Of a DNA stretch of 64,000 nucleotides, positions 167 through 21,688 are shown in pieces. Source of the stretch: Lytechinus pictus (lineage: Eukaryota); contig NC_087251.1 of the NCBI RefSeq assembly GCF_037042905.1, positions 16,866,001 to 16,930,000 of the forward strand. Direction: 5' to 3'. The translations under genes were made by a program, and so were the position numbers. Position 1 is the first letter of the stretch; every line of letters starts with the position of its first letter. The notes under the pieces are model-generated. The model searched no databases, was not told the DNA's origin, and saw nothing but the letters and a program-made list of their open reading frames with translations.

Positions 167-3100
167 ATGAGTTAGGATCTATCCAGCCGCCGAGCAGCCG
201 TAAGATCCCCTGTCAGGTATGTGGTGCGATGTCGTCTGGTCTTCATTTCGGAGTATTCACTTGCGAAGGATGCAAGGTAATCATTTACTGCAAAATATAG
301 GGCCTATCCTATAAATTGTTTCTATCATATATATCATTTTCATCTTTATTATTCTTTGCGCATGTTTCATAATCATTATTGATTTTTAAATCCCCATTGA
401 ATATCAAAATGTCACTTGCCTTATCTTTCTCTCGCTCCTGTCAACATTCCCCTATCACACGGCGTTTAGTTGGCTGCGTGCTTTTCTTTACCGGTAATTA
501 TGAACGTAAACCTATCATCCTGTATTTCTTTATAATTTCTACATAATCATTCTTTTTTTAATATACTACCCATCATACGGCGTTTATTTTGCTGCTATTC
601 TTGAATTATGTACGTTAGCTAATCATCCAATACTTCTTTATCATTTTTATATAATCATTGTTCTTTTTAAATATATTAACCTTGCCTGTATATCAGTTCT
701 CATTATCCTTTATTATTGCACTCAGATTAATTAGATCTATTGAATATTCATTTTTCGGTAGCCACATCTCTAGTAGCTACATCTTTGACTAAAATTTGGT
801 ATCTAAATTACATCATGACTGTTAAAGTTTTCCTCCTCTTGCGACATCATCTTTTCTCTATTCTGAAATTATTTGTTGATTAGATTATCAAGGTTGTGAG
901 GCATAATGGACAGGCGTTCGAAGAAAGGAACCCACCGTTGATCGCACGCATTAGAACAAACGAAATATCATGTAATTTTAATGAACGATAAACACAAGCA
1001 ATTATCCCCTCGATGCATTTCAAATTGCTCACTGCATAACTTTAATACAAACCTGTAAATATTTAATGAATAAGTTTTAGCATCATTGCTCCTCCATTAA
1101 AATCGAACAGATTGACATATCATAGTTCCTGATAGTTCTATATAGGGTAAAGTACAGGGAAAATGTAAAAGTATCTTGGTTTTTTTTAATAGCTCACTTT
1201 TAGATGGCGCATATGGGCTATTCCACGGTTACCCACGTTACATTTGGAGACACCTTGATTCATACTTGGAGCTGTAACTCCATTATTATTGATAGGAACT
1301 AAACATCTCTTTATCACAAGAAAGTACGCAGTCTGACTATCCTTTGTATAAAAAAAAACTTGGGAAATTTTATTATGCTCCTGGCAAATCTTTGAAATGT
1401 GTCGGTTACTCATGTTACATGATTTGGACATGCATTAATGAAAAGTCGACATAAGTGAAAAGTGTCCTCATACAAGGCTTTTTATGAAAGTTGATTATAT
1501 CCATTTCAAAGAAGTATATTAGGGAGACAAACTTTGTATATAATTCAAAAAATAAAGAACACATGGTTTTTACTAGGGGTGCAGATAAAGTGGTTACTCG
1601 CGTTACATTTTGTCCATGTATGGTCAACAACACATGTAAATGTCACTGAAAATTCAATAATGTGTGTAAGATTCATGTTTCTGTTTCTGTAATAATATGA
1701 GTAGGATTTTAGACACCAGTTTATGTTTAAAGGTAATATTCTGAATAAGTTTCCTCCTCTCTTTTACTTATTGGTCAGTTGGTCAGTATATTGGTAATGT
1801 ATTCACTAAACTGTACGAGATCTGGCTTGGGCTGTGTAAATAAAAAAAATGTAAAACAAATGCATGCCATTTCTTGCCTCAAGCCCTCAACATCGATTAT
1901 AAAAGAACCAGCAAAAAGTATAAGTAAGGCAAACACAATTAAAATGAACAGTTCAGATGGGCTATACAGTACAAAGACACATTGAGCTCATGTCCACCAA
2001 CCTATGAAATTGCCCATATTATTATTATTATCATCATTTTAATTGTTGTTGTCATTATTATTCTTGTTGTCTGTTATTGCTTACTGTCTAAAAAAAAATC
2101 GAGTGAATACAATCCACTAGAGTATTAAGAGTGGCTTTTACTTGTGTCTAGTTCATTCTATATTAACTCCATATTGAATATATCTTAATTGACCTCACTA
2201 TCAAAGAGAGAGAAAGGCGAGTGAATCCCCCCGTTTTAGAGTATTGTAATTTTATTCATTGTTTTCAAACTGAGCCCCCCCCCCATTGCAAAACGATCCT
2301 GTTTTTAATGGATGTACTAATGTTTTATAATGGTTGTTTGGTTGCTGGTCATCAGTCAGTCAACAAACAAAGTAAATGAATAAATAAGATATTTTTAAAA
2401 AATCAAGTAAATGGATTAATTGATAAAATAATTGATTGAATACATGAAAAAATAGCGAATGAATAAATGAATGAATAAATCTATTGAATAAGAAGGAAAA
2501 TAAGCTTTATAAAATCGGAAATGGGTAAAACTATTTAACGGATATCTTATGTCGCTATAACGTTAAACGACATTTTGTTTTCTTCTCTTCTTTTTATTCG
2601 TCTTTTACTATTTATTTCCCCTTCTGCTTTCCTTCTTCCACTATTATCCCTTTCCCTTTTTACCGACTCAAATCCAGGGGATGGACCCCACACCCTGATA
2701 TAAATTTAAATCATCCCACCATTATCTCTTAGGAGTGCCCTTTGAAGCAGTATTTGACCCTTTTGACCCTATTTTCGCTCTTTTTCTAATATTTCCACCC
2801 TCTTTCCCCTTTTCCCCCTTCCCCCTCTTTTCACATTTTTTGTTGTTGCCAGGGGCACCTATGGATTCCCCATTTCTTAAAACTGAAATGAGACACACCC
2901 TAAGATGATACCGCGATTAATGATCAAGTAATGATGATTTTTTTTTTCAATATAAATTAGAATAGAATAAAATTGAGAACAGTTTAAGAGGGTTTAAATA
3001 GGCTGACCCGCAGTCAAACGTTAATTTCTAATTTCGACATTTCGAGGTACACATATCATTTTATATTGATCTGTCGCATTTATTTTGTCTGTCAAAAGCT

Positions 3101-6100
3101 ATCGGCTATCGGTAAGAATGACTACCGATCTGGTTTAAATTCCAAGTCAGTGTTAAGCAAGGTTTAAACAACAATTCTTCATAAGATTTATATCTCTTTG
3201 TCTTTATGCTTCAGTTTTTATTGCGCGATTAATGTAATGTAATTATTATTGTTGTTAAAGAAAAATAAAATGCAGAAACTTTATCTCACACCGTTAATTG
3301 ACATGACTCTTATAAAGGCCTGCAAAATCTTCGGCAATTCTTTTATCTGCTAGCAGGCTAGGACGGTGACGGGGTGCTGTGTTGGAGAGAGATATATAAA
3401 CTGTATATAGAGAGAGAGGGAGACAGAGACAGAAAGAAAGATGAAAAATTGGAGAGAAGATGAGTGTATGAGAGCTAGAGGGGGAGAAAGAGATTGAATC
3501 ACATTTTTTCACTTCATAGTAAAACTTCCGTCATATGATTTATGATTTGAGTATACGAAGCATTGACGACACTGCTGCATGCATATGAACAAACTGAAAG
3601 TGAGCTAGTCATACTCAAAAGACGTGTTTATATAATTAAATAAGAAACATCGGTATTGTGTGTGGATGAAGGGGGCAATTTTAATTATGAATACAAATAC
3701 AGAACGTGAAGAATTTGGAATGAGCGTGGCTCGCTCAGAGTCGTGTATGTGAGATGCTAAAATGATGATGGAATGACAACAACATGGTACAATTCAACTT
3801 GAGTTAGAAGATGTTTGGTTGTGTTTTGACACTATACATGAATTAATATATATCTAAAAAAATTCAAAAGTGGTTTGTCAGCTCATTGAATGAAAATTGA
3901 AAAAATAAAGTTGTAAATAATAATAATATTCCTGACTGAACAAGAATTTGAGTCCAATTTTGGAGAAAAAAAAAACAGGTTTCACCTTCCTCATTCAGTA
4001 CTTATTAAGGAAAATACCGAATAATCATTTGAAATATACTTTATATAGGAATTATCATTCTTATTCCCTTTTTAATTAAAAATTCATTTTTTTTACAATT
4101 TCCACTGCTTGGTTAGAATATACAGTGGTGCCAAAAGGTTAGTGAACCCCACAGGAAAATGAAAATATTCAAAGTGTTCAAGTTCTGCCATGTTTTATAT
4201 ATTTAATTGTGAAATCAGGCGATAAAATATTACATTAAAGGTTTGTTTCTCTGAGCTCGCTGAATAGTGTAGCGTTGTTGTCTACATCTAACACTCAACA
4301 TAAATGAGTGCATTTTGTGAAGGGGTTCACTAACATTTTAGCACAACTGTAGACTTCACTGACCTTGCAGAGAGTCCGAACCAGATACTGCAAAAAACAG
4401 AACAAAACATACCCCCCCCCAAAAAAAAAAACGCATTCGAAGTCATTTATATGGTTTATTTGATAAAAGGAATATTTTTTTTTTTTTACCATAAATGTGG
4501 TATCACTGGCTAATAAGGAACACTTGATTCCAAAATGGAGATTCCCTTTCGCATTCTTGTTTTAAATCAAAATTTCTCCTATTTCGTCTAAACCTCTCCC
4601 CTTGATCATTTTTCCAAATGCCGCTATCAACAAAGGGAATATTTTCTATATCTATATATTATTTGCTGCTTATATAGATTCATACACAGGCCTATATTTG
4701 GTTAATTCAATTGACTGACAGATGACATAATTTCTTTTATAATGATATCCCTGCCGGCCATAGGAATCGCCGTGTTCACATGGTATTACATCCATAAAAA
4801 TGGGTTACATTGACTCTATAATAATGCAGCATTGAAAGTTAATTCCCTTGTTAGAACAACCCTCCAAATTTAGACATAAAGCTAGACCTGTTAACCCTTC
4901 AAATTATCTGGAAAATTTTGGTAAATAATATACAAATACATTGGTGCCTTTTCAGTGTTTTTACAGAAGGAGCATCCGAGAAGGGGCGAACTACGCATGT
5001 GCGAAGGAACGAAGCTGCGAAATCACCATGGAAACGCGGAATTCTTGTCGATTTTGCCGATTTCAAAAATGTATTGGTCTTGGAATGTCAAAAGAAGGTA
5101 AATACAAATAAAATCATGAATATTCATTCTACTGAAATGAAAACTGTATTTATGTTTAACAATTGTTTTATCAGCAAAAATTACTACATATATAAATAAT
5201 TATTTTAGAAATCGAAGGGATAAGTGAAGTTAGTACCAATTTCATCATCATTATACAAATTGATAACATACATGACATAAGTGTTAATTTATTGTAATTA
5301 TCATATAATTTATTTGTAGGGGCAGATCCAGGAATTTTTGCAAGAAAGGGGGTGACATTTTTGTTCAGAAAAGATTTTGACAAGGAAAAAAAAGAGAAGG
5401 TATTTACTAGCGTATGCACAACATTTTTCACATCACTTTTTTATGACTCTCATGGGGGGAGGGGGGACGGACGGGCTGGATGTACCCCCTCCTGGATCCG
5501 CCACTGACCCAATCCCACCAATCTTTCCATATTCAATACCTCATCACTCTTATACACTACAATACAATTTTAATCAAAAGTAACCGAGTTTGACCAACGG
5601 TAGTATTCCTTGAACATTCGATGTAAAAATTTGTAACCAATATCAAAACATCGACGGTATATCAATGTAGACTATTTCGCCCAACTATTGGCTAAACTTG
5701 ACCAATAAATTATTTCAATGGTTTGCCAACTTTCCAGAAATAAATGCACAACTTATTGCAGTGTAGAAAAGGGTTGGATAGGAGAAATGACGAGGAAACA
5801 GATAGATAACTAGAGATTGGATATTGAATCAAAATTACAATTGTCTTTTGATGTTATGGCTTACAAAGTTACAATGAGTTTTGACAACAAATAATGTGGA
5901 GAGGAGTTAATTACCCGAAATGCCTTTCGTTTTTTATCTTCTTTGTGCAAGGGAGCGATCAAAAGAAACAGTTTAATTCATTTGTTATATTTTCTTCAGA
6001 TAATGCAGGACGTGGTAAATGCGGTAAATAATCTAAGAATCTGAATAATTGATGAAATTATCCATCGCTTGCTCTATTGAAGGTACTCTCCTCAATCAAA

Positions 6101-7341
6101 GACGTATTATAACATTTCAGATAAAAAAATTTGATATGGCTAATTAGACACGCATTTTACCGCCTTGAACTTCCACTGAGGAGCCCGTTGATTTGTATGC
6201 GTACTAATCATGCTAATGAACTATTAAAGACCATTGTCTACACACAAATGCCGGCTATTATCCTCTATTGTACATGTTGTATACAAAACGTTAATCAAGA
6301 ACGTCACGCATTTATCATCAGACTGTCTTGCGGAGACCATTTGTTCTGATTTTAAGCCAAACCATGAAAATCGCGTTAAATTTCTAGGGCTGAAATATTG
6401 ATTGAGCCCTAATAATGATTTCCGGCAGCAATAGGGAAAAAAAATCACAAAAAATATCCATCAAGACAATGTTTCATATCAAAAGAAAATAGAACGACGA
6501 AATTGGAAAGTAATGTTGGAAGCATGTAAAATAATATTGTTCAGCCATATTTTGTAAAAGGCAATGATAAATGTAATAATAATGACAATAATTATATCAA
6601 TAATCTATAGTACTCGCATCTGTCGGGTTTTGTCAAAGCCGAACCGCCTCAGTAACGTATCCACAATCATAAAGGAACCGACGAACAAGTTACGCGAGAC
6701 TAATTATTTATGAATAAGTGTCTCCCCCTTATTTGTTTACTTTTTTATTTACTACCCTTTCTTGTCATATTGATAATTTGTGAGACTCTCACTGCATATT
6801 CATAGGAGCCTTCAACCAACAAGATTTGTTTTCACTTTTTGCTCCCTTATATCCACATCTCCCATTTTCTTTCTTTGTTATTATTTTAGAACCAATTACA
6901 AGAATGCTTTCTAGTACCTTTTTTATATTGTTTTAATTATATGTATACATTTCATACTTTACAACATATTTCTTATGCTTATTTATGAACATTTGTATCA
7001 TATATCATCATCGGGTAAATATACCTATATCATTATTACTGTTATTATTGTTTGTATTGAGTTATTGATGTTTGAAAATGTGAAATGTTGGAACGAATAA
7101 ACCTTGAACCTCGAGTTGGGGGTTACAAATCTCGGTTAAAAAGAAATCATCCTCTATCCTAAACATACCGGAACGTTCTCATGAGTTAACTTAACGGGTT
7201 ATTTCTTTGTTGAAATATGACACCAAACATTGATCTATACTGTCATGTTCAGAATTATAATCATATACAACCATCACAACTACTAATCTATAATAATAGG
7301 CCAGTATAGGCCTCCTACTGCTGCTACTACTTCTACTACTT

Positions 7342-7375
<34 letters not shown>

Positions 7376-7376
7376 A

Positions 7377-7408
<32 letters not shown>

Positions 7409-7409
7409 A

Positions 7410-7444
<35 letters not shown>

Positions 7445-7536
7445 AACTACAACAACAACTACTACTACTACTACTACTACAACTACTACTATTACTACTA
7501 CTACTACCACCACCGCCACCACCACAACTTCTACAG

Positions 7537-7574
<38 letters not shown>

Positions 7575-7596
7575 GTTACTACTACTGCTACTACTG

Positions 7597-7627
<31 letters not shown>

Positions 7628-7685
7628 CACCTCTACAACTACTACTATTACTACTACGATACTACTACTGCTACTGCTACTACTG

Positions 7686-7769
<84 letters not shown>

Positions 7770-7784
7770 CTGCTACTGCTACTG

Positions 7785-7839
<55 letters not shown>

Positions 7840-7966
7840 CACCACCACCACCACCACCACCTCTACAACTAATGATACTACTGCTACTACTGCTACTACT
7901 ACTACCACCACCACCACCACCTCTACAACTACTACTATTACTACTACTATACTACTACTGCTACTG

Positions 7967-8021
<55 letters not shown>

Positions 8022-8074
8022 TACTACTACTGCTACTACTACTACTACCACTACTACTACTACTTCTACTGCTG

Positions 8075-8133
<59 letters not shown>

Positions 8134-8143
8134 GCTACTACTG

Positions 8144-8223
<80 letters not shown>

Positions 8224-8224
8224 G

Positions 8225-8257
<33 letters not shown>

Positions 8258-11200
8258 GTCCTATACACCAACAACTAAAGTACCACCACTAGTAAGATTC
8301 TCCAATTAATATAAATGTGAATATATTATTAGTGTGGTGATAGTGGCGACGGTGATTTCAGTAGTAGAAGCAGGTGGTAGTGGTTGTAGCAGTAGAAGAA
8401 ATTGTATTATTATCTACTATTTATAATACTACTTTTACTACTGCACCATTCCCAACACCACACTGCTGATATATTCATGTTTATATTCATTGGAACATCT
8501 TTATCATTAATAATGCATTGTGTGTGTGTGTGTTTCATTTCATCCCATAGGTATCAAGTTAGGCCGCCGGCCGAAGGTAGAAAATGAGCCTTTGCAACAT
8601 ATGTGCTACACAAACAGAAGAGACATGGGTTCGATACCCATTGTAGCGGGAAGTCCACGGAGTCTGTCATGGTCCCCAACATTCAACTCGCATATGCCTG
8701 GACACCCGGACTACGTCCAGTCCAACTATAAAGACCTGGATATCGATGCCATGTCCAAGTATGGAATCGGTTTACATAGTGAGGGATGCTATAGCCTGAA
8801 ACACGAGACAATGTCCCAGTGCGACCATTGTAACGAACCGTTCCCAAACCAGTATCCATACTCTGGTGGTCATCATGGTCATGACGATATGGCGAGCTAT
8901 GGACCTATGGATGGGATCGTACCAACTTCGAATATGACGTGGAAGATGGAAGCTACGTATAGCGCTACAAGCTGTGTTCAGAACAACTACTCCATGATGA
9001 CGCGTTCTCCGGGCACGACCACGCCCATCAATTCAACACAAGGGGATGCTTGGCAAGTATCCCAGCAAAGTCCCTCGACCATAAGTGAGGTGTCATCCGA
9101 TGACCAGTGGGACAACGGAGTCAGACCACATTCAGGAACGGCACCGGTGAGCTTGACAATCCCTGAGGTGCAAGCAGGAGCTGTAGCTGCTTTGGCATAT
9201 GCCAACCTTTATAGAGACAAGACGGTAGATCAATCCGAAGACCACAACCAGATGATATCCACAGCTGATAGAGTAGGTGATTCAAACCCTGCGGATATCG
9301 GGCATTCAAAAAGCTATACGGAATTGGTTCCTCGAAGGACAGCTTCTTGTGAGGACAACTATGAATCGGAGTGGCATAGTCAGCGACTAGACCTTCCTCC
9401 AAAATGCCAAGCAGAAAATATAGCCATTAACCATCTTGCGTCATGTAATAATGAACGATCAGATCTTAAAGATCAAAATATTGTTTCTTCTAGAATACAC
9501 ACATCCCGGGAAGAACCTCGTAAACGTGGATTCGCAATGACTCTCCTACCTAGTACCTACATGAAGAGAAAGAAGCATTGGTCAGATGATGAACAATCGG
9601 CAGGTGATGATGATGACGATGATGATGCTGATGAAAATTACGATCATGATGACGACGGAGAAGGAAGCTATGATGAAGAAACAGGAGAAATACAACACGA
9701 TTCTGATAAAAGCAGATTATCGGCAGAGCTCGTTGAGAGATTGATAGGTGCGTTTGTAGATGTGACAAAGAACATGCAACAACTGTGGCAGTACCATCTT
9801 CGCAGCACCTCTTTGGTAAGTCTCTTGGCTTACTGTCACTTAGTTGTTACATCAACTTGACATTGCTATGGCTAGCGTGTGGAAAGGTTGATGGCTAAAC
9901 TAACCGTATTTCAATGATTGAAGGGGAATCGCAAAAAAACTACTGTACTATTGCTATTGCCAAGTATATCCAAACAAGAACAATTTTCTCGCCAATCTTT
10001 CGAATGGTAAACTCTAATAAGATATGGGTTTTCATCTTCTCCTTCAATTACAGGGGATGCAAGCACGTGATAGAGAACGGGGGGGGGGGGGGTCATAGCA
10101 AATTATCCAAGCAAAAAAACTGTTACGGATCAAACTATTCATGCTAACGGGCAATGCATTTTGGCCTTTACACTTTGCATTTGGGGTACTGCAGCGGTAC
10201 TTCTTATTTTGTAGTAGAGGATGTGGGTTTTAATACAAGAAAGATGTATCTATAGTTTATACCATTGCACCAATGACATTTATTATCCCTATAAGATCAT
10301 AATTTCGAATTCGGTGTTATGCGACGCTATTATTGCGCCAACCCTATAACACCAAACGTTCAACACCGATTTTGAAATGACACGATAAGTGTTCAGTTGC
10401 GTGTAGTTTTTTTTTTATTCAAATCGGCATATTTACTCTCCATTACCCTCTCTTATCTTTTATTTATAGGCCTATTATCACTTAGCCCCATTTTTACTTG
10501 ACCCACTGCGATATCGCCTGGCCACCGCTCATTTTGACGCTTGCTTTATGCATAGAGCTATGCTTTATGTGATAATTTTCAATTACCTGTACGATTTTTG
10601 CACGAAAATTTCATCCTTCCTGAATCATGTAAATATCATTAATATCATGGTCCATTCTTTCGAGCTACTAATTGCAGCAATTGAAAAGGCATTTGGTGTT
10701 ATAGTCCTGTGGATTGTCCCGGTGAATTATTCATGCATCCCCAAATAGTATGATTATAATTATTATTTCCTTTTGAGTCGATTATTTTCGTCATGTTCAC
10801 TTTTATATATTCTGAACATTTTAGATTGAAGACAAACTATGTAACAAGGACATGGATACCTTTGTTCAAGAAAAGAGAGACGAAATCCAGAAGATAATTA
10901 CTGGCTATTCCTATAAAGTTTATGGTAAGTACATTATAAAATTATAGCTTTTATATATAAACTTTACACGAAAGAAATGACTGTACTTAAAAAGGATTAT
11001 CAATGGTAAACAACATCCGATAAATTAATATGGTAAGATATATTAAATAGGAACAGAGGGAAGACCTATACTGGGAAAAGGTGCGTCTTTGCAGGGGAAT
11101 TTAATTTCGGGGCGAAACGATGAAAAACTGAATTAATATTTCGGGAGCAAAATTGATATGACCCCCTTTGTGTTTCTCACAAGCCGACATTACGCAATAT

Positions 11201-12265
11201 GAAGTTCTTTGGTCTGTCTGACGCGAAATTTCTGTAGTTGGCCTTCGGAAAAATCTAATTTCGGTAAATTTTTCTGTACTTTTAAATTTATTTTCAAAGG
11301 TAATTTACCTATATCATACTACAACGAGAGAGCATTCCATGTGATATCACGCCTATGCTTGCTACGTGATACCAAACATGAAGAAAATGAGGAGAAATAC
11401 AAGGCTAGAGCAACGCAGAAAGCTGCCGTCCTCTGCGCTCTTTCTATCGTGCCGTCAGGTAGGTTCAAATAACAATCAATTTATCAATTAAAAAACAGTA
11501 ATATTAGTTTTTCATTCATCTGTCTTTGTATCAATCAATGTTTTTATTGTTTATACCTACATCCTAAATGATATTGAAATATTCATCTACTGATCTGCAT
11601 AATTCATTGTTTACATGATTTATTTATTCATTTATTTGTTCACAATTTATTTCAACCTGTAAGCGCTATACCCAGAACACATAGAATTATATTTTACATA
11701 ATGTGGGCCTAACACCAATGACATGAAACTGATGTGAAATGAAGTCGAGGAATAGTTAGAAAAAAATAAACTAATCCTATTTTTGTAAACAAAAAAATAT
11801 TTACATTGAATCCCCAGACCCACATTTGTGCCAAAATTATGGTTTTACATGTTTCATTTTACAGGGGGCGCTGTATCACATCAGCTTTCATCGAGACAAA
11901 AACATTTATACACCGCTCTATTAAACTCTCTCAAAGGTAGGTCATTCAGTGTTATGTTCCGTTAAGCACATTATTATGGGGGAATTCCCATCTTGATTTC
12001 AATCTTCTTGTTCTTCATAATATATTCTCCCTAGTTTTTACTTCCTATTCCTTTTCACCCTTATCCATCCCCCGATTCTTTCTTTTTATCTTGTTTTCTT
12101 TTCATCTATATTTTTCTTTTTCTAAATTTTATTTTATCGCTCCTTCACCTCCCCCATCTTTCCCATTCTTTCTCATTTTTCTTATTCTTTCTATCTGCAT
12201 TAAGGTAAAGAATTTATTCGTTTATTTTTTTGACAGGAAAGCAAAATGGAAACGATGCTATATGA
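167..12265 (+). CDS. Nuclear hormone receptor (NR1-like C4 zinc-finger DBD, long hinge, degenerate/truncated LBD); 5' end lies upstream of the window
   Basis: Exons with AG/GT boundaries and consistent phases: 167-276 ([36 protein letters not shown]), 4956-5097 ([47 protein letters not shown]), 8551-9815 (GIKLGRRPK...[34 protein letters not shown]), 10825-10924 ([33 protein letters not shown]), 11865-11936 ([24 protein letters not shown]), 12237-12265 (GKQNGNDAI*). They join into one open frame of about 572 codons. The two DBD exons are unambiguous; the last three exons are less certain. Confidence 0.88.
4123..4349. mobile_element. Tc1/mariner-type MITE
   Basis: TIRs CAGTGGTGCCAAAAGGTTAGTGAACCCC / GGGGTTCACTAACATTTTAGCACAACTG, with TA on both flanks. 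Confidence 0.8.
5317..5506. mobile_element. hAT-like MITE
   Basis: Imperfect TIRs TAGGGGCAGATCCAGG / CCTGGATCCGCCACTG with subterminal G/C runs, similar to the other hAT-like elements in the window. No clean TSD. Confidence 0.6.
7315..8257. repeat. Long (CTA)n trinucleotide microsatellite with CCA/CTG/CAA variants
   Basis: About 940 bp of ACT/CTA repeats in the nuclear-receptor intron between 5097 and 8551. It generates the poly-V, poly-S, poly-Y and poly-L ORFs in the track. Confidence 0.98.
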
Positions 12266-13303
12266 ACTGAATCCACAGCACTCACGTGAAGACGAATTGA
12301 TAAGCACCGTATCAAGGAATAGGACCATCCACCTCCAATGGGTCAAAGAGAGATTTCCTCACCCCATTTACCCGCTTGTATTTATCTGGAAAAGCTTCTA
12401 TAATTGTGATCATTTATTATTTTTGGGAAGGTATGAAATTGTATGAAATGCAATGCACTTGGCATATTCAAACACGCAGAAAATTAAGTTCTATGATCAT
12501 GTATGCCAGAACTAAAGTTTGTAAATATACAGTTTTTACTCTTGAAAGTGTCCCCCCCCCCCCCCTTTTGAAAGTGAGGACTTTTTTTGCTTGTCAAATT
12601 TTCCGCGGACGAGATGACCTTCAATTTTAGGTAAAAACACAATTATTGACTCGATGTGGAATCTAATGAATATCAATTTGTCCTTTATTTTCTTTGGAAA
12701 ACGATTTAAGTTTTGGAACCGAATACCCAGGTTTCACTACAAGCGCGCACTGAGCTCGAGTAGCCTGCCTGAGACTGAGTTAGATCATGGACCTAGGTCT
12801 GACGTCGCGTCCATGGTAACTTAGATCTAGACCTACGCCTGTTCGCGCTATAGCGCTAGACTACGAATTTAGCGTCTGTTATTGATCGAAGCCAAAGCCA
12901 AAGAGGGGAAAGAAAAGTCAACAAACTGCCGTATTCTTGTCATATTCCATGCCATTTGGTAATTGTGAATGTTGCTGACGGTTACTGATATTTCACAGAT
13001 GGAACTTTACGTGAAATATTCAAATATTTTACAACGATGTTGTTGGCATTATTTACTTCGGTCCCACGTGTGTCATTTGGTGTAATAGATCTATAGATAG
13101 ATCTACTACTTTACTAGAGATTCGTGCATTCATGGTACGTAAATCGCTCGACGCAAAAGAAACGCTGACTTGGCCTGTGTGGTAAACTTATGCCTAAAGG
13201 ATTTGGATGTGGATAGGAGAGAGTACAGACCGGCTACATGTTGTATGTACAGCAAACAACATGCTCTGTGATTTATAACGCTATCATCACTCCAGACTGA
13301 TTC

Positions 13304-14191
13304 ATGCAGATTCAACAGAAGAAACGGCTGTCAAACATTCGGAGCAGTCGTCATAAGAATAACCCAGTACTTGATAAAAAGTGTGAAAGAAGCACATTGC
13401 AGTTAAAAATTGCTAAGATATTTAACTATGTTGGAGTTGTATTCATTCTGTTGTTACTCTTTGTATCATCGACTACCGTTACTTTTTTTACCATCCCTGA
13501 AGTAGTGGAAAAACTTGGTTTCATTGCATGGAAGCACCTGATGTTTACCACATTTGCCTTGGGATCTACCTTTGCAAATTTTCTACTGGCTGTATTTACA
13601 AACACGTCAATACCAAGCAATTATGAGTTAAGAGGAGGGACTAAGACTTCACTGCCAATCCGTGCCCATTATTGTAGTTTGTGTAAATCTGCAATTCTGA
13701 AACATGATCATCACTGCTATGTGCTTGGAAAGTGCATTGGGTATCATAATCAGAAGTATTTCATCTGGTTTTGCTGGTACTCGATGGTGACGGCTTTCTA
13801 CTCTTTGTTCCTGACGGCCTTGTACCTGAGTTTAGCCCATTCGGTGGAGTTCCCTGGTGCCTGGACCTACTTTCTCCTTCTACCCAGGGCTGTGGTAGGC
13901 TGGTTTTCTGGCCATACTGATGTAATGGAGCTTGCATTTACTCTGCTACTCTACATCCAATTGGTCGGTGGCTTTGTAGCTGCTGGGTTCTTTGTATGGC
14001 AGATTTTCTTGGTAATAACAGGGTTGACAACACATGAGGCCCTCTATGGAGAGAAGTTTAGACTGAAACGCCAGGCAGGAATGTACGCTAAATGGACTGA
14101 AGTCTTTGGAAAATACTGGTTTATTGGAATGGTTGTACCATTGCCATTCCCTCAATGTGGTAATGGGTTGTATGAAAAACTGGAGAATTGA
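13304..14191 (+). CDS. ZDHHC22: DHHC palmitoyltransferase, ZDHHC22-like, single coding exon
   Basis: 295-aa ORF with two N-terminal TM segments, the Cys-rich domain PIRAHYCSLCKSAILKHDHHCYVLGKCIGYHNQKYF, two further TM segments and a TTxE motif (GLTTHE). The HDHHC context and the missing first CxxC resemble ZDHHC22; orthology is by recognition, not by search. Confidence 0.9.
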   Translation: MQIQQKKRLSNIRSSRHKNNPVLDKKCERSTLQLKIAKIFNYVGVVFILLLLFVSSTTVTFFTIPEVVEKLGFIAWKHLMFTTFALGSTFANFLLAVFTNTSIPSNYELRGGTKTSLPIRAHYCSLCKSAILKHDHHCYVLGKCIGYHNQKYFIWFCWYSMVTAFYSLFLTALYLSLAHSVEFPGAWTYFLLLPRAVVGWFSGHTDVMELAFTLLLYIQLVGGFVAAGFFVWQIFLVITGLTTHEALYGEKFRLKRQAGMYAKWTEVFGKYWFIGMVVPLPFPQCGNGLYEKLEN

Positions 14192-14975
14192 GAATCTATG
14201 TTTATGCATGTAATATTTTGAGTTTGGATTGATTTTGCTAACCTTTTTTTTGTTTTGTCTACTGGGGAAGTCCTCATGATGAGTTCATTGGGATTAAAAC
14301 TGTAAAAAAAAATTAATCAGCAATTAAGGTTTGGTGAAATTCTTTCAGAGGATAATAACATCATGCATTAGAAGTTTGTAGCATTAAGTGAGAGTTGCTC
14401 TCCCATTAAGTTGTCATTTTCAAATTGGTCACAATGACATTAATAAGTGTTTTGCATACATGTAGTAGTGTTAATGAAATTTTGCAGGGTTTAGCAGGGC
14501 TAAGATTTTAATTTCTGTGTTAACTTTGGATTAATTCTACTTTTCTTACATGTACTTGGTATTCAGTGGATAATCTACACATGCTATAAAATATCTAATC
14601 ACTAGCCTTGAGTTTTGGTTTTCATAGATGTTGGATATTTTCTTTGTTAATACAAGTGAAAACTGAAAGTGTGGTAGATCAATTCTAACAATACTGCATT
14701 TCAGGATGGTGTCCCTATATCTAAGTTCTTTTTCAAAACATTTTATAAATAATTCCTTTTTCAAATATAAAACATAATATGCAAAAATATCCCTGCTAAC
14801 CCAAAGGTATTCCAGTGGTCTAAAGGACCTTAGTTCCAGCTTTTTTACTGTCCATCATTTACAAACAAAATATATCATAATTTTATAGACTTTTGGAGCA
14901 GATACATAAAATCTTTATTTGAATGATTGTAATTCATCATTGGAAAGAATCTCAGAAACATTGATTCTAATGTGA

Positions 14976-16497
14976 ATTGATTCTAATGTGTATACAAGGT
15001 AGTCTGTGGAATTGGATAAAGTCGTTTGTATCTAATCGTTACCAGGTTGTGCAATACCGTGGTTCTTGCTCAGATCCTGCAATTGTTTCTTCTGGTATAC
15101 CCCAAGGAAGTGTCCTGGGTCCGAGATTGTTTAATATGTTTATCAATGATCTAGTAAGAGTTGTCCAATCACATTGCCTGCTTTTTGCAGATGACACATT
15201 GATATATAGATTGATTAGAGACCCAGTTGAGACCAGATTCCTTCAGGAGGATCTAGATAGGGTTGTATCATGGTGTAGTCTTAACAAGATGCAGTTGAAT
15301 GCCAGTAAAACCAAAGCTATGAGAATTGCTCCTCGTAAAAAGAATGTTGGTAACACTAGTTACATGATAGATGATGAGGTAATTGAACAGGTCAGTTGTA
15401 TCAAGTACTTAGGGGTATTTCTCAATTCCCAGTTGAATTGGGATGACCATGTTAATCATGTTGTTTCAAGGTGTAACCGTATGCTCGGGCTCCTAACCCG
15501 TATGTCGGCTGGCCTCTCTTCACGAGCGCTTCTGACATTATACAAGTCACTTGTGTTGCCCATCCTTGATTACGGAGTGCCAGCTTGGATGGTCTATACT
15601 CAGAATCATATTGATATGCTTGAGCACATTCAGAGAAGGGCAACACGAATGATTCTCAGACAGCGACGTCAAGAGATGCCATATGACCAACGTTTGCGAT
15701 TATTAAAATGGCATACGCTAAAATCTCAGAGGATTTTCTTAATGGTGTCCTTTTTTGTTAAATTGTTGTATGGTTTGATCGTTTGCGAAGTCGCAAGGGA
15801 TAATATTGTAATACGTGTAAGACGTTCTGACGTAGATGTTAGATTTGTACACCTAAAGGCAAGAACAGAGAGACTCCATCAGACTGCAATTCACAGATAT
15901 CCCATAGTATGGGAAGCCCTGCCCTCTGAAAGCAGAGTTGAAATAGTCTCAGGAAACATTAATCATGTTCTGTGTGTCCTCAAGAGGGATATCCTTAAGT
16001 TCCAGTTAGATTAAAATATAAATTAGAATATGTCTAAAGATCCACAACACATTATCAAGTTTCTTTTTAATTTTCTAAACTGTGTCCAATTTATTATTTC
16101 TTTATATCTTTTATCTCATTCGTTGTAAAGTTATTTATTTCCACTGTTGGCTCAATTATATTTAACCGAATATTTGTTCCTCCTGTTTTCTTTGGTTAAG
16201 TCAAACATAAGTTGGTTCCCTTTTTTTTTGTGCAACCTACCTGTCTTGTACTATTATGTTATTCTATTTTGTAACTCTATTATGTAATGATCTTTTTTTC
16301 ACCCAATCAGGTGTGGGAGGGAAGGCCTGTGGGCCATGGCCATTAAGTTGACCTATTCCCTACCCAGGCTACCTGGTTGGGTGAGAAAGGGTCTAAAAAT
16401 TATTTGTATTTTTGTATTTTTTCTCAATTTTGCATTGTACATGCTGTTTTGTTTTTGATGAAGTGCCGAATAAAATAATAATAATAATAATAATAAT
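14976..16497 (+). mobile_element. 5'-truncated non-LTR retrotransposon (CR1/L2-group LINE): RT C-terminal part, 3' UTR and (AAT)n tail
   Basis: Open 345-codon frame 14977-16014 with GIPQGSVLGPRLF, FADD, KYLGV, LYKSLVLPILDYG and LEHIQRRATRMI. It is followed by a ~480-bp UTR ending in AATAAA(ATA)n near 16470-16497. Confidence 0.93.
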
Positions 16498-16671
16498 TCT
16501 CATATACATTGCAGGCCTACATTATGTGAATCATCATACCGTGTCCAAAATTTGCTTGTTTATGTCCTTCATAAGATTTGAATCAAATTCTTGATGTTCA
16601 CTTTCTGGACAGTGATGTACAGGGTAGCATTTGGCTTAATTGGTAGAAAAGTCACTTAATCTTCACCTATC

Positions 16672-17752
16672 CAGTCAGTCGGCAGGTCCCAAGAAAGTGG
16701 CTTCTTTCATCCAAGTGATATTCATGACTTGAGATGTTTTGCATATTTAGTGAGCTTGATGCGGACCAAAACACCTCTTTTCATTTGGTCATTGCTGCCC
16801 TAATTGTGCATCAAATTTAATGATTTTGGTATCATTGTAAAGAAGAAGAACCATTCTTTTAGGTCATGTGTTTGAATTTATTCAAAGGTTTTGTAATATA
16901 GGTTAAAATTTTGATCTAAAATATGCTACAAAATAATTATTTTCACCTGACAAAAGCTGCTATTTTCACACTTTATTTTTGTTTGAACCCAGCGATTTTT
17001 AAATCATGATAAAGCTGAATATGTATGCTTTAAAATGGTATAGGTTTCAAAATAAGACTTGGTTTAATCGGATCAAGATCACACTTTTCATTGGCCAAGT
17101 ACATAAAGCAACTTGAAAACAAGAATACTGCGCTCTGATTGGTCAAAGAGACCACACACTGGCAAATTCCAACGGTTCCAGTGCCTGGGTTCATGGAAAG
17201 GTCACACTTCCCATGTGGTAATCTCCTCAAATTACCCGCGCCTGTTGTTCTGTGAACCTTATTCAGCCAATCAGAACTCTGGATTTCATGCAAGTACAAA
17301 ATTTCAGAAATCTCGTCTTGTACCTTGGTGGGAAAAGTGTGATCTTGACCCGATTAAAAGGTGCCGCATATCAAGAGTGGCATTGTGAGAAAGTACAGAA
17401 GTTCAGCTTTATGGTGATATATATATCATTGAGGCTCAAAATAAAAAAGTTTTGCACAATTTGCAAAAGAAAACAGAGGAAGAAAATTCAGTTTTGAGGC
17501 ACATTTTCAGGCAAGAAATTTACTTATTTATCAAAATATTGTATACAAAATAAATGACCAATATGAAAGAATAACATTTACTCTATCTGATGGTGCAATA
17601 ATATTTCATTTAACTTGATGTTAAAACAGGTAAATTCTTAGAGAAAGAAATTCTCACAAATCACGAGATTTTGCAAGGAGGATTCAGCCACGAGATGATT
17701 TGGATGAATCTGGCCTTTTTGCTCATTAGCATAGGGACCTGCGGTCTGACTG
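16672..17752. mobile_element. Non-autonomous DNA transposon with long imperfect inverted arms
   Basis: TIRs CAGTCAGTCGGCAGGTCCC / GGGACCTGCGGTCTGACTG with a TATC direct repeat on both flanks. Internal inverted pair TTAATCGGATCAAGATCACACTTTTC (~17064) / GAAAAGTGTGATCTTGACCCGATTAA (~17332). Confidence 0.8.
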
Positions 17753-18588
17753 TATCAAAATACATGTACATTTTAGATCTCACACCTTACAAGAATTTGT
17801 ACTGTAATTTGAGTATTTTTGTTTTTCACTGTTACAAATAACAGATCCACTGTTTGTACAATACCCAAACATAGAATCATGCTTTAAATAAAAAATAGAA
17901 AAATATGTCATGTGTAACCTTTTCTGTGTGCAATCCCACATCCATATTTATATGTGCTCTACTTGCACATTATGTGGCTTCTACCTCATTTCTATCAGTG
18001 TAAGGAAACAGAAAAAACACCTTAATAAAGAGATCATACCTATGCATACTTAATAAAATTATTGATGTTTCTTGAATGTGTAATGTCATCAGCAATTTGC
18101 AGTTTTGAAGTTACATGTACATTAACTACCAAAATCAATTTGCATATTGGTAATCTTGGAGCTTTTACAAATTGAGAAAGAACAAAATCAATTTGCATAA
18201 GAATGTCTTCATAAGTTTCATATAAAAAACAAAATGCTTTGATGGAATGACAGCCCCCCCCCCATTTTTTAAGGGAATAAGAGAAAAGAGACTGTTTTGC
18301 CAAATTTAGTTAATTAGATGGCATTCCTGAAATTGTAGTTACTTATTGAAATTTATACTTGTACACTGCATGACCATATTGCACTCTTCAATGTACACAT
18401 CAATCCTACATGTACCTGTATATGCCTTGAAGTTCTGTGACCTACATGTATTCATCTCCCAAATCATGTTGAGTTATTTTGGATTAAACATTTTGTCTAC
18501 AACCAAATAATTTCTTTTTCAATCAGGTAGGTATTTGTGATATATATATTGTTAAAATTGAAACAATTTAATCAAAGTTTAAGCTATA

Positions 18589-18701: not shown

Positions 18702-21688
18702 TAGTCTTAGATTCAAAGCTCTACTTGGAATAACATGACTCATATGCTACATGTATGTATTTTTTTCCTTTGATACCCTAGGTGCATACACTTTGTAGCT
18801 TCTGTTCATGATATCAGAATGACTTTTGTGGCCAAGAGAAAGAAACATTGATTGTGCAGGTAGAGAATTGGAAAAATAGACAAAAAAGAACAAAAGAATG
18901 CTGTAAATAATATTGGTAAGCATGTATATATGTTTGGATATCAAGTAAATTTACAAATTGTAAATGAAAGTACATTTCTGTATATGTATGTTTGATATGT
19001 ATATATTTGAAGAAAACATGTTTGTGTACTGGCAACTGAAATAAAGACACTTGTAAAACATTCTTACACATGTAATAATTGTATTATTTACTGTGTGTTT
19101 ATTTTCCAATGTAGATCAGCACACAATTGATCATGCGATGGAATGCATATATATCTCAATATAAAAATCACACTCACTAATAAAATGCAATACCAATGTG
19201 AAAGGTGAAAACTTTGTCATTGTCCACAGTCTCGACTCCAAAAGAAGGTGAAAATAATAACTATTAAATGAGCTTTGTAGATGGTTTAGGGTTCGAGAGC
19301 TCAACTACAAGTTTCTAATTCATACAGAAAATAATATTTTGCAATTATGGTAATTACCATGATAATAGACAATCATGGTAGTTAATAATATAGTTAACTG
19401 TAAATGACATTGGGCTCAAAACTATAGCATAATAGAAGAATATCAACCATTTTAAAATACAATATTGATGTATTGCCTTTAATTTACATTGTGTGCCAAT
19501 CAAAAAACTGAGAGCAAAATAAACGTCAGCATAAATGACATACATTTTGCTCTTTTATGGGAAATGTCATCTTTGACGTTTATTTCATTTTGTCATTGCA
19601 AAGCAGACAGTGGTAGGACTTGAAGAGCCCAAACATTCAGGTTCTAAATAGTGTCACATACCATTTTGATATTATCACTGCCATACACAACAAAGGAGGG
19701 ACTGGAGAGTGGAAATTACCCCCTCCATTGTTTTGCCCAAGATGTATATTCTTAAATGCAGATTTTAACAAAATTCCACTAAAAGTGTGTGACGGATCCA
19801 GTATTCTGAACTCCGGGTTTATTTTTTAAATCGTATGACACCCAAATTGTTGATAATTGTCTGGGAATGATAACTGAAGAATTTTTCTTTGTTATGAAAG
19901 TAATATGAAACAAAATACTGAACATAAGAGATATACAATATAAAATGAAATTTTTTGCTCCCCATAATTTTAGCACAGAGTTAGACTGTGATCTTAGTTA
20001 AACCTGACTTCAGAGTACAGGCCGAAAAGTTCAATTTACATTAAATCATCCCCACACTCCTTTGTGATCTGTTATTAAAAACCATACATGTACATACACA
20101 TACCCCCCATAAAAAAATATGTGTACAACCATGGAAATTATTCTTGTACACTCTTTTTGTAGAAAAGTAATTTTCTTAAAATGACTGCATGCTGTAAAAG
20201 GCTGCTTGGGCTAACGCTTATGCAAGGTAATAATATCCAATTCTTTTGGAAGCTGATAGAGATGTAAGAATTGTGCATAATTATTATTATTTCACATGAA
20301 AATTAAAAGAAACACAAGATGCAAATGTGGATAAGGCAAATGATGGAATGTATACAGACGGGCTATGCAACATACATGTAGCTGGTTGATATCTACAAAT
20401 TGATCATCTTTAAATACAAAAAAGCCTTGCTTGCTACATATAGATTAGAGATATCTAATTGTCAAGTGTACAGAAGTTTCACTGAAAAACACAATATACT
20501 TTCAGATGTCTCTGATATAAAAATACATACACCCGGGGCATGTAACACAAAGCTTAGCAATCATGGTAGAACTTTTTTTTTCATGATTGCATTGACTACA
20601 TTGTTCATTTACTCATGAAAATCAAGCGTACGATTAATCACTAACCTTTGTGCTATGGGACCCTATAGTTTTGTTTTTACAATGCTAAAAAGAAACTCAA
20701 ATGTGTAACAAATACACATACATTTCCATGTTATTAGTAGTACTGTATAAAAAGGCACTTTTAAACACTTGCTTGGACATCAACTGCTTTGGATATTATC
20801 TAATCTAAAGTTGGACGGAATTCTTAAAATAAAGCAGTATACCATTTCATGGGCTTACATGTACATGTACTCTTTAACTTTTCTTAGGCTGACAATCTTT
20901 AGACTGATCTCTGACACTCACCAACATGTACAGAAGGATTCAAGGATTTATTTACAATCAAGCGTAGCTCAAAAATTTTTCATGCTGGTACATGTATATC
21001 AATAAGTATATAAAATTTTAATGGTATTTACAGAAAAATCAACCCAAACATTTCTAAATAAGATACAGTAATTTACTTAAGAAGAAAACAAAACTACAGG
21101 AGAGCAGTTTTGATTAAGATTATTGATTTAAATGAAGGAAATCAAGGGGGCATTTCATCAATGTCCATAATTTGACAATTTGTCAGATCTGACAAATATC
21201 CGTTATTTGATTGCCCAAAAAGCACAGGTGCCTCAATATTTACTACAGTAACTCTTAGATAATGACAACTTTTAAGAAAAGTTCTCATGGGCCCGTTACA
21301 CAGAGCATGGCCATTGACAATGGGGCTGATTTCTATAATTGATGGCATCGATTATTATCTATGATCAATTTTTAAAAAATCAGCCTTACTATCAATTACT
21401 AAGCTTCATGTTATAGGCATGTGGTCATAAATAATTAACATACCCATACAATCAATAATGTTATTACTTGTGACCAACAATATGAAACAAATGCAAACAT
21501 GCTTATAATGTTATTTCTTGTAATTAAAAATGAAATGGGAACAAACATGGACTTAAACTAAATGTTACATGCTACATTTACCGATACAAAATGTAGAAAA
21601 AAGGGTAGAAATATACATGTATCTCCATCTTACATGATTTAGTGTACATACTTCACAGCAATCTTGTATATACATTGGATAATGACCT

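Follow-up and report, generated by a model that had tools for sequence, protein, structure and literature searches.

The window analysed here is a stretch of 64,000 nt of the Lytechinus pictus genome (contig NC_087251.1, positions 16,866,001 to 16,930,000 of the forward strand). Its region 9700-12265 comprises the last five coding exons of an orphan nuclear receptor (NR) gene, LOC129265451, which encodes a protein of 643 aa. We propose that the C-terminal 145-154 aa of this protein are a reduced ligand-binding domain (LBD) in which helices H1, H3-H5, H8 and H9 are kept, while the H6-H7 pocket floor and H10-H12, with the activation function 2 (AF-2) helix, are gone; we place the probability of this reading at about 0.8. 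The receptor belongs to a conserved family of echinoderm receptors with a mini-LBD that has neither pocket nor AF-2.

Gene structure and transcripts of LOC129265451

The translated long exon matches RefSeq entry P0010 ("uncharacterized protein LOC129265451 [Lytechinus pictus]") at 100% identity. When the seven exons present in the window are joined, they yield P0010 residues 20-643 with every letter matching, and all introns have GT..AG borders (Table 1). A preliminary description of this DNA, made from the sequence alone, had drawn attention to three peptide stretches that follow the hinge. All three are present, the first at 9711-9749 and the others in exons 10825-10924 and 11865-11936. Their likeness to the LBD signature stands for the FAK half in exon 10825-10924; the stretch taken for "DQ..LL" in exon 11865-11936 is in fact H9, and the true motif lies in exon 11300-11458, which had been missed. 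That exon consists of 159 nt (53 codons) and is in phase 1 at both ends, so that leaving it out keeps the frame and the correct stop was still reached. This stop, a TGA at 12263-12265, coincides with the end of P0010 as had been described, and the 3' untranslated region continues beyond it.

Table 1. Coordinates of the LOC129265451 receptor gene and of the neighbouring DHHC gene in the window
Feature	Position	Strand	Evidence
First coding exon (MHNLELQLDLPYQSITLQ)	upstream of window
Exon with first zinc finger, C-X2-C-X13-C-X2-C, ending ...CEGCK	167..276	+	PF00105 E 3.6e-8; tblastn of P0010 residues 19-55; exact translation
Exon with second zinc finger, C-X5-C-X9-C-X2-C	4956..5097	+	PF00105 E 1.7e-14; tblastn; exact translation
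Large exon: C-terminal extension of the DNA-binding domain (GIKLGRRPK), long hinge, acidic tract, H1-like helix	8551..9815	+	Exact translation; spliced contigs of runs X1 and X5
Hinge motif LT(L/I)PEV..GA.AA.AYANLYR	9147..9221	+	Invariant columns of alignment A1; found in P0014 and P0015
Hinge motif SYTELVPR	9312..9335	+	Invariant columns S357-R364 of A1
H1-like helix of the putative reduced LBD	9723..9809	+	AlphaFold helix, residues 5-33 of the 154-aa fragment; aligned from H1 of NR LBDs
Exon of H3-like helix ("FAK" half of the LBD signature)	10825..10924	+	Orthologue alignment, profile block 1, AlphaFold, hhalign; RNA contigs of X1 and X5
Exon of degenerate IPGF..L...DQ..LL (H4/H5), 9-residue linker and H8	11300..11458	+	P0010, orthologue alignment, profile block 2, hhalign
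Exon of H9	11865..11936	+	Orthologue alignment, profile, AlphaFold; 22/24 identical in S. purpuratus; consistent with X1 bin depth
Last coding exon: unconserved 9-residue tail (G)KQNGNDAI and TGA stop at 12263-12265	12237..12265	+	Exact translation; L. variegatus P0024 ends alike
Intronless open reading frame (ORF) of a DHHC palmitoyltransferase, 296 aa, about 1 kb downstream of the receptor	13301-14191	+	PF01529 E 2.4e-23

Transcripts agree with this gene model. The joint from 9814 to 10824, over an intron with GT..AG borders, is present in two spliced contigs: one of 860 nt from run X1, with 1 mismatch in 402 nt, and one from run X5, which is about 3% diverged and carries another organism label. 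At the X1 contig depth of 6.58, the depths recorded for individual bins match the lengths of the exons they contain: a depth of 1.70 corresponds to the 100 nt of exon 10825-10924, 0.36 to 18 nt (11865-11882), and 1.48 to 54 + 33 nt (11883-11936 and 12237-12269; 87 nt). The raw RNA-seq runs X6 and X7, from organism B, gave zero depth on the receptor exons and covered the DHHC gene, a result that is silent on expression elsewhere.

Searches of the window brought up no further part of a receptor. With 17 query proteins (the family and seven full-LBD receptors), tblastn across the whole 64 kb gave no LBD-like match outside the mapped exons; the other matches at E<=1 were to microsatellite sequence or weak, and none involved the LBD regions of the queries. 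A six-frame search of the 812-Mb assembly with PF00104 (Hormone_recep) returned 55 matches, none of them inside the window. Further exons encoding a full LBD, the finding that the preliminary description had said would overturn its reading, were thus not found by tblastn in the window or by PF00104 in or near it. An ancestral reading frame hidden in the last exon was considered and rejected. Three frames of 12237-12450 were compared with six orthologue tails, with 300 shuffles each, and one of the 18 comparisons stood out (frame 0 against Amphiura, equalled by 6/300 shuffles); this is not significant after 18 tests, and its register is at odds with the H9 alignment.

Probable homology of the C-terminal domain

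The homology of the C-terminal domain emerges from an alignment (A2) of the C-terminal domains of seven echinoderm orthologues. In it the end of exon 8551-9815 falls on H1, exon 10825-10924 on H3 (...YKVYG, resembling ...KFAAN), exon 11300-11458 on H4/5, a short linker and H8, and exon 11865-11936 on H9. A profile built from A2 and run against all PDB sequences gave 58 rows at E<=10, of which 56 are NR LBDs and two are methyltransferases. The best matches were to HR38 (E 0.0012) and RORalpha (E 0.0018), both through two collinear blocks, H3-H5 and H8-H9; Rev-erbbeta was matched at E about 0.3. When A2 was compared with six canonical LBDs by hhalign, the alignment (E 1.2e-4, probability 55%, 117 columns) contained a gap of about 30 columns at the beta-turn/H6/H7 segment and left 53 template columns, those of H10-H12, past the end of the query. 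The beta-turn/H6/H7 segment is replaced by a short linker, which has 9 residues in L. pictus.

Individual orthologues differ in how much of the LBD signature they show. A plain signature is retained in the brittle star (FAANLPGFEELSPAQKDSLL) and crinoid (FAETISGFQDLANESKDELI) proteins, and in those of sea urchins, starfish and the sea cucumber the motif has degenerated. PF00104 gave a sub-threshold match on FAANLPGFEELSPAQKDSLL of the Amphiura protein P0011 (20.2 bits vs a cut-off of 23.5, E 4.4e-4). It had no match at E<=10 on the starfish orthologues, nor on the sea cucumber protein P0012 and the crinoid proteins P0019 and P0013, which were scanned at E<=0.001 only.

Structure prediction leads to the same assignment. 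AlphaFold2 run on A2 gave an all-helical model of the 154-aa L. pictus fragment (mean predicted local distance difference test, pLDDT, 77.6; predicted TM-score, pTM, 0.74). In a VIA search with this model, ranks 1-31 of 48,161 chains were all NR LBDs, at Z 8.0-4.8, although Z values below 8-13 can reflect a common helical arrangement; 119-142 of the 154 residues were aligned at a root-mean-square deviation of 4.3-5.6, and the first unrelated chain had Z 4.5. We give weight to this fold match because a single family sweeps the top ranks and because it agrees with the profile and with hhalign. The corresponding model of the Amphiura domain (pLDDT 80.7) took ranks 1-36 with NR LBDs, at Z 10.5-6.3. 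A search of the ESM Atlas with residues 490-643 returned fungal DUF6532/DUF6698 clusters with 125-148 shared features (<170) and was set aside as uninformative.

The models also show where the domain stops. The L. pictus structural alignments end near the start of H10 in the solved chains, and in the identical chains the Amphiura model extends 11-14 residues further: to 336 vs 322 in CAR, 381 vs 368 in TRalpha, 521 vs 507 in ERalpha, 420 vs 409 in RORbeta and 569 vs 556 in Nurr1. The last helix of the family is therefore H10, and it is missing in sea urchins. No family member has a counterpart of H11-H12. The AF-2 helix (H12) is accordingly missing from the L. pictus protein, which ends 9 residues past H9.

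These results change the anatomy first proposed for this domain. The preliminary description had the LBD cut off after helix 4/5, which no longer holds: the missed exon supplies H4/5 together with H8, and the next exon supplies H9. Its statement that no exon encodes helices 7-12 is right for H7 and for H10-H12 with AF-2 and wrong for H8 and H9. As for the domain checks it had suggested, Pfam PF00104 was negative at E<=10, while hhalign and structure prediction both pointed to a partial LBD.

The limit on the Z scores is one of several points that weigh against a reduced LBD. PF00104 has no match at E<=10 on the window exons or on P0010, and the sequence-level support is weak for L. pictus taken by itself. 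The hhalign probability is no higher than 55%. Foldseek against the PDB found no match at E<=0.001; the best E was 0.13, with the LBDs of Nurr1, ROR, PPAR and LXR in the top rows. The AlphaFold models were built from seven sequences. On the transcript side, a single joint of the four downstream is among the splice joints listed, the other three having been deduced from depth arithmetic, and bin 11109-11495 has a depth of 3.31 against the 2.70 expected from exon 11300-11458, a surplus that is unaccounted for. Finally, the hinge exon is the last one in the current S. purpuratus RefSeq model P0026 (518 aa), and exon 11865-11936 is absent from P0025, an older model for L. pictus; isoforms without part or all of the C-terminal domain may therefore exist.

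Orthologues, DNA-binding domain and neighbourhood

Orthologues were collected with a hinge-exon search followed by an alignment search. Full-length proteins came from the starfish Patiria (P0004), Acanthaster (P0008) and Asterias (P0009), the brittle star Amphiura (P0011), the sea cucumber Apostichopus (P0012) and the crinoids Anneissia (P0013) and Antedon (P0019). The hemichordate orthologues P0014 and P0015 are shorter (371 and 378 aa); they consist of the DNA-binding domain (DBD) together with a hinge motif and end after it. The absence of H6-H7 and of H11-H12 is common to the orthologues of all five echinoderm classes. H10 is retained in the starfish, brittle star, sea cucumber and crinoid proteins, and among those examined its loss is seen only in sea urchins. 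The reduction of the LBD is old and no recent accident.

Within sea urchins, the end reads ...LLNSLKGKQNGNDVI in L. variegatus P0024 and ...LLNSLKGQQ in P0027, the older model for S. purpuratus; all three species stop just past H9 with an unconserved tail. Between L. pictus and S. purpuratus, the DBD is identical at 82/82 positions, the hinge at 276/385 (72%) and the C-terminal domain at 122/146 (84%), including 22/24 in the H9 exon. The C-terminal domain is more conserved than the hinge, which argues that it is functional and under tighter constraint.

The DBD of P0010 is intact, with two C4 zinc fingers (PF00105, zf-C4, E 3.6e-25, 88.6 bits vs a cut-off of 21.1). Its P-box, read across the junction of exons 167-276 and 4956-5097, is CEGCKC; it does not vary among the five full-length orthologues of echinoderms that were aligned first and was also read in further orthologues, including those of hemichordates. 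To our knowledge, nearly all receptors carry Gly, Ala or Ser at the position of the last Cys. The extension GIKLGRRPK that follows the DBD is of the ROR/Rev-erb kind. Among solved structures the DBD is closest to RORgamma (98.1 bits over residues 4-90, extension included), followed by Rev-erbalpha (89.4 bits). A higher score, 115.9 bits, is reached outside the family by P0016, a receptor of Asterias (A. amurensis) with two DNA-binding domains (2DBD), whose second DBD is the nearest found. The contigs that carry P0016 and the Asterias orthologue P0009 are equally long (38,009,675 bases) and are probably one and the same. By phmmer, P0016, P0017 and P0018 each have two DBD stretches, whereas P0010 and every orthologue have a single PF00105 stretch. 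The second DBD of P0016 is, judged from sequence, a possible origin of the family. We treat this link as a lead and not as a result because it has no match in the affinities of the C-terminal domain: the C-terminal profile, compared with seven full-LBD receptors, showed no special affinity to 2DBD LBDs (4.3 bits for P0016 and 12.5 bits for P0017).

Between the DBD and the C-terminal domain of P0010 lies a hinge of about 380 aa. Two of its motifs are deeply conserved, and it also includes an acidic tract. The motif at 9147-9221 is the best-conserved stretch outside the DBD and extends to the two hemichordate proteins; SYTELVPR is invariant in the five echinoderm orthologues of alignment A1. Across the echinoderm classes both motifs are nearly invariant. 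No known function was found for either, and we regard them as candidate cofactor-docking sites.

The receptor is followed on the same strand by a DHHC palmitoyltransferase gene, found where the preliminary description had placed it, about 1 kb on. An X1 contig covers it at 13206-14290 and raw reads of X6 and X7 reach a depth of about 3-4 there; it therefore appears to be expressed. Farther downstream, a 347-aa open frame at 14971-16014 on the plus strand carries a reverse-transcriptase domain (PF00078, E 1.8e-17) and probably represents a non-LTR retrotransposon fragment. The regions 16527-18074 and 19623-20000 are covered very deeply, on either strand, by contigs and reads of each of the four runs (up to about 2400-4400 in X1 and about 80-125 in the raw RNA reads), with many variants and internal joints. 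They represent a high-copy transcribed repeat, and the ORFs there have no Pfam match.

Low-complexity sequence also marks the receptor gene itself. A trinucleotide microsatellite of (ACT)n/(ACC)n/(GCT)n, about 960 bp long, occupies 7300-8260 in the intron that separates the exon of the second zinc finger from the hinge exon. It yields spurious low-complexity tblastn matches and makes the strands strongly asymmetric, with a GC skew of -0.39 in 6001-8000. Homopolymer runs occur at 12560-12575 (C14), in the 3' region, and at 10080-10092 (G13), in an intron; unrelated contigs pile up over the former, in bin 12270-12656.

Proposed mode of action, rival explanations and significance

The DBD is intact, and both the AF-2 helix and the space for a pocket are missing; LOC129265451 is therefore best read as a DNA-binding factor that acts independently of ligand. 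We consider this highly probable, and here the preliminary description is supported. Lacking pocket and AF-2, the protein would not support ligand-switched activation. Its DBD and extension would be expected, by analogy with the extensions of ROR, Rev-erb and NGFI-B type, to bind extended AGGTCA-type half-sites as a monomer. Binding as a monomer is probable on the same analogy, and in sea urchins also because H10, the core of the usual dimer interface, is missing. The output would be constitutive and would pass through the exposed face of H3-H5 (where corepressors bind a normal LBD, as they do in Rev-erb), through the hinge motifs, or through both. The outcome would be repression or competition for response elements; repression specifically is a tentative suggestion, drawn from the Rev-erb parallel, to which we assign rather less than even odds.

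Among known receptors, the LOC129265451 protein would work most like Rev-erb (NR1D), in a more reduced form. Both have an RxGRxPK-type extension, an LBD without helix 12, an open H3-H5 surface and no classical hormone, but Rev-erb keeps H6-H7, H10-H11 and a pocket, which holds heme, and LOC129265451 is without these. The similarity does not imply orthology. The DBD scores 89.4 bits against Rev-erbalpha, compared with 98.1 for RORgamma and 115.9 for the second DBD of the 2DBD receptor, and the C-terminal profile reaches E about 0.3 with Rev-erbbeta. ROR (NR1F) provides the best solved DBD relative (RORgamma) and the second-best PDB match of the C-terminal profile (RORalpha). The RORs, however, have a complete, ligand-occupied LBD with AF-2 and the P-box EGCKG in place of EGCKC. 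The echinoderm 2DBD-NRB receptors share the "EGIKLGR" extension through the second DBD of P0016, yet P0016 has two DBDs, a full LBD and AF-2 where LOC129265451 has a single DBD. The part of Wu & LoVerde (2023; PMC10497141) available to us lists one 2DBD-NRB per echinoderm and does not mention a single-DBD family.

The knirps group (NR0A) offers another parallel: Pfam sees only the DBD in it as in LOC129265451, ligand independence is presumed for both, and the automatic label "knirps-like" occurs in the family. Members of that group have no LBD at all, whereas LOC129265451 holds a conserved LBD-derived domain of about 145 aa. Surveys class NR0A by architecture and not by descent, according to the accessible text of PMC2774871, and the corresponding text of Miglioli et al. 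(2021; PMC7827873) places the loss of NR0A genes early in chordates, so that DBD-only receptors would already have been counted in non-chordate deuterostomes. An origin separate from arthropod knirps is plausible; no knirps protein is among the PDB matches of the DBD.

The preliminary description had gone further and seen a degenerate LBD, cut after helix 4/5 and independently lost here, that would leave a knirps/NR0A-like and effectively LBD-less receptor. The absence of a PF00104 match on any exon, the real stop at 12263-12265, the lack of AF-2 and the NCBI automatic name of the Acanthaster orthologue, "zygotic gap protein knirps-like", all fit such a receptor. The anatomy is already contradicted by exons 11300-11458 and 11865-11936, which encode H4/5, H8 and H9. 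The region is not decaying either: Lytechinus and Strongylocentrotus share 122/146 residues (84%) in the C-terminal domain, as against 276/385 (72%) in the hinge. The same reduced domain, without H6-H7 and H11-H12, occurs in five echinoderm classes; the loss is therefore neither recent nor lineage-specific, and we give this explanation little credence. The comparison with the hinge bears equally on the idea of a C-terminal region that has lost its function and survives as a relic, in which case the protein would work by its DBD and hinge only and domain-less isoforms such as S. purpuratus P0026 would be the functional ones. That the current S. purpuratus model ends after the hinge exon would agree with it, as would annotated hemichordate orthologues (371 and 378 aa) that end after the hinge motif and a signature motif that is degenerate in sea urchins, starfish and the sea cucumber. 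The domain is nonetheless the better-conserved part (84% vs 72%, with 22/24 in the H9 exon), it is recognisable across the echinoderm classes and its models fold confidently, which leaves a relic still less credible.

A sensory role has to be weighed as well, in which the reduced domain binds a small molecule or cofactor at an unconventional site and is regulated instead of constitutive. Rev-erb, also without H12, binds heme (title of PDB entry 3cqv), but the H6-H7/beta-turn region and H11, which line every known pocket, are missing from LOC129265451, and the linker at the H6-H7 position has 9 residues in L. pictus; we hold regulation of this kind to be very improbable, more so than a relic. 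Least credible of the four is a full LBD whose H10-H12 lie in unannotated exons farther downstream, for example beyond the DHHC gene, and in unsampled transcripts. The 3' end is covered by one transcript contig only, short divergent exons escape tblastn and RefSeq models vary between releases, all of which would leave room for such exons. Against them, in three sea urchin species the RefSeq proteins terminate shortly after H9, and full-length orthologues in four other echinoderm classes end after H10 without H11-H12. In addition, a gene on the same strand begins at 13301, and the remaining 51 kb contain no LBD-like match to the 17 query proteins or to PF00104. A reduced LBD in a ligand-independent factor thus remains the reading we prefer.

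For annotation, the analysis corrects the exon map and recognises a domain that escapes Pfam. Our full-text literature search returned no description of the family or of the EGCKC P-box; an earlier listing under a provisional name is possible. Receptors of this kind are easily overlooked. In the portion of Bridgham et al. (2010; PMC2950128) consulted, sequences without a detectable LBD are excluded outright; NR surveys usually drop them, and conserved families such as this one can therefore stay invisible in deuterostome phylogenies.

We tentatively suggest, with the odds somewhat against it, that the family is an undescribed NR group extending across the Ambulacraria. It would be characterized by an invariant EGCKC P-box, two hinge motifs and a conserved half-LBD (H1, H3-H5, H8-H10), in which the upper, cofactor-facing half is retained and the pocket and AF-2 are deleted. 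Its origin may lie in the lineage to which the echinoderm 2DBD receptors' second DBD belongs, sea urchins having additionally shed H10. The family represents a third state between a full LBD and no LBD, a stable half-domain without pocket or AF-2. Evolution has thereby run an experiment that can show which LBD parts are enough to fold and to contact cofactors. The family would also add a ligand-independent regulator to the gene-regulatory toolkit of sea urchins and, if the wider proposal is true, its half-LBD would be a natural minimal LBD that acts purely as a protein-interaction module.

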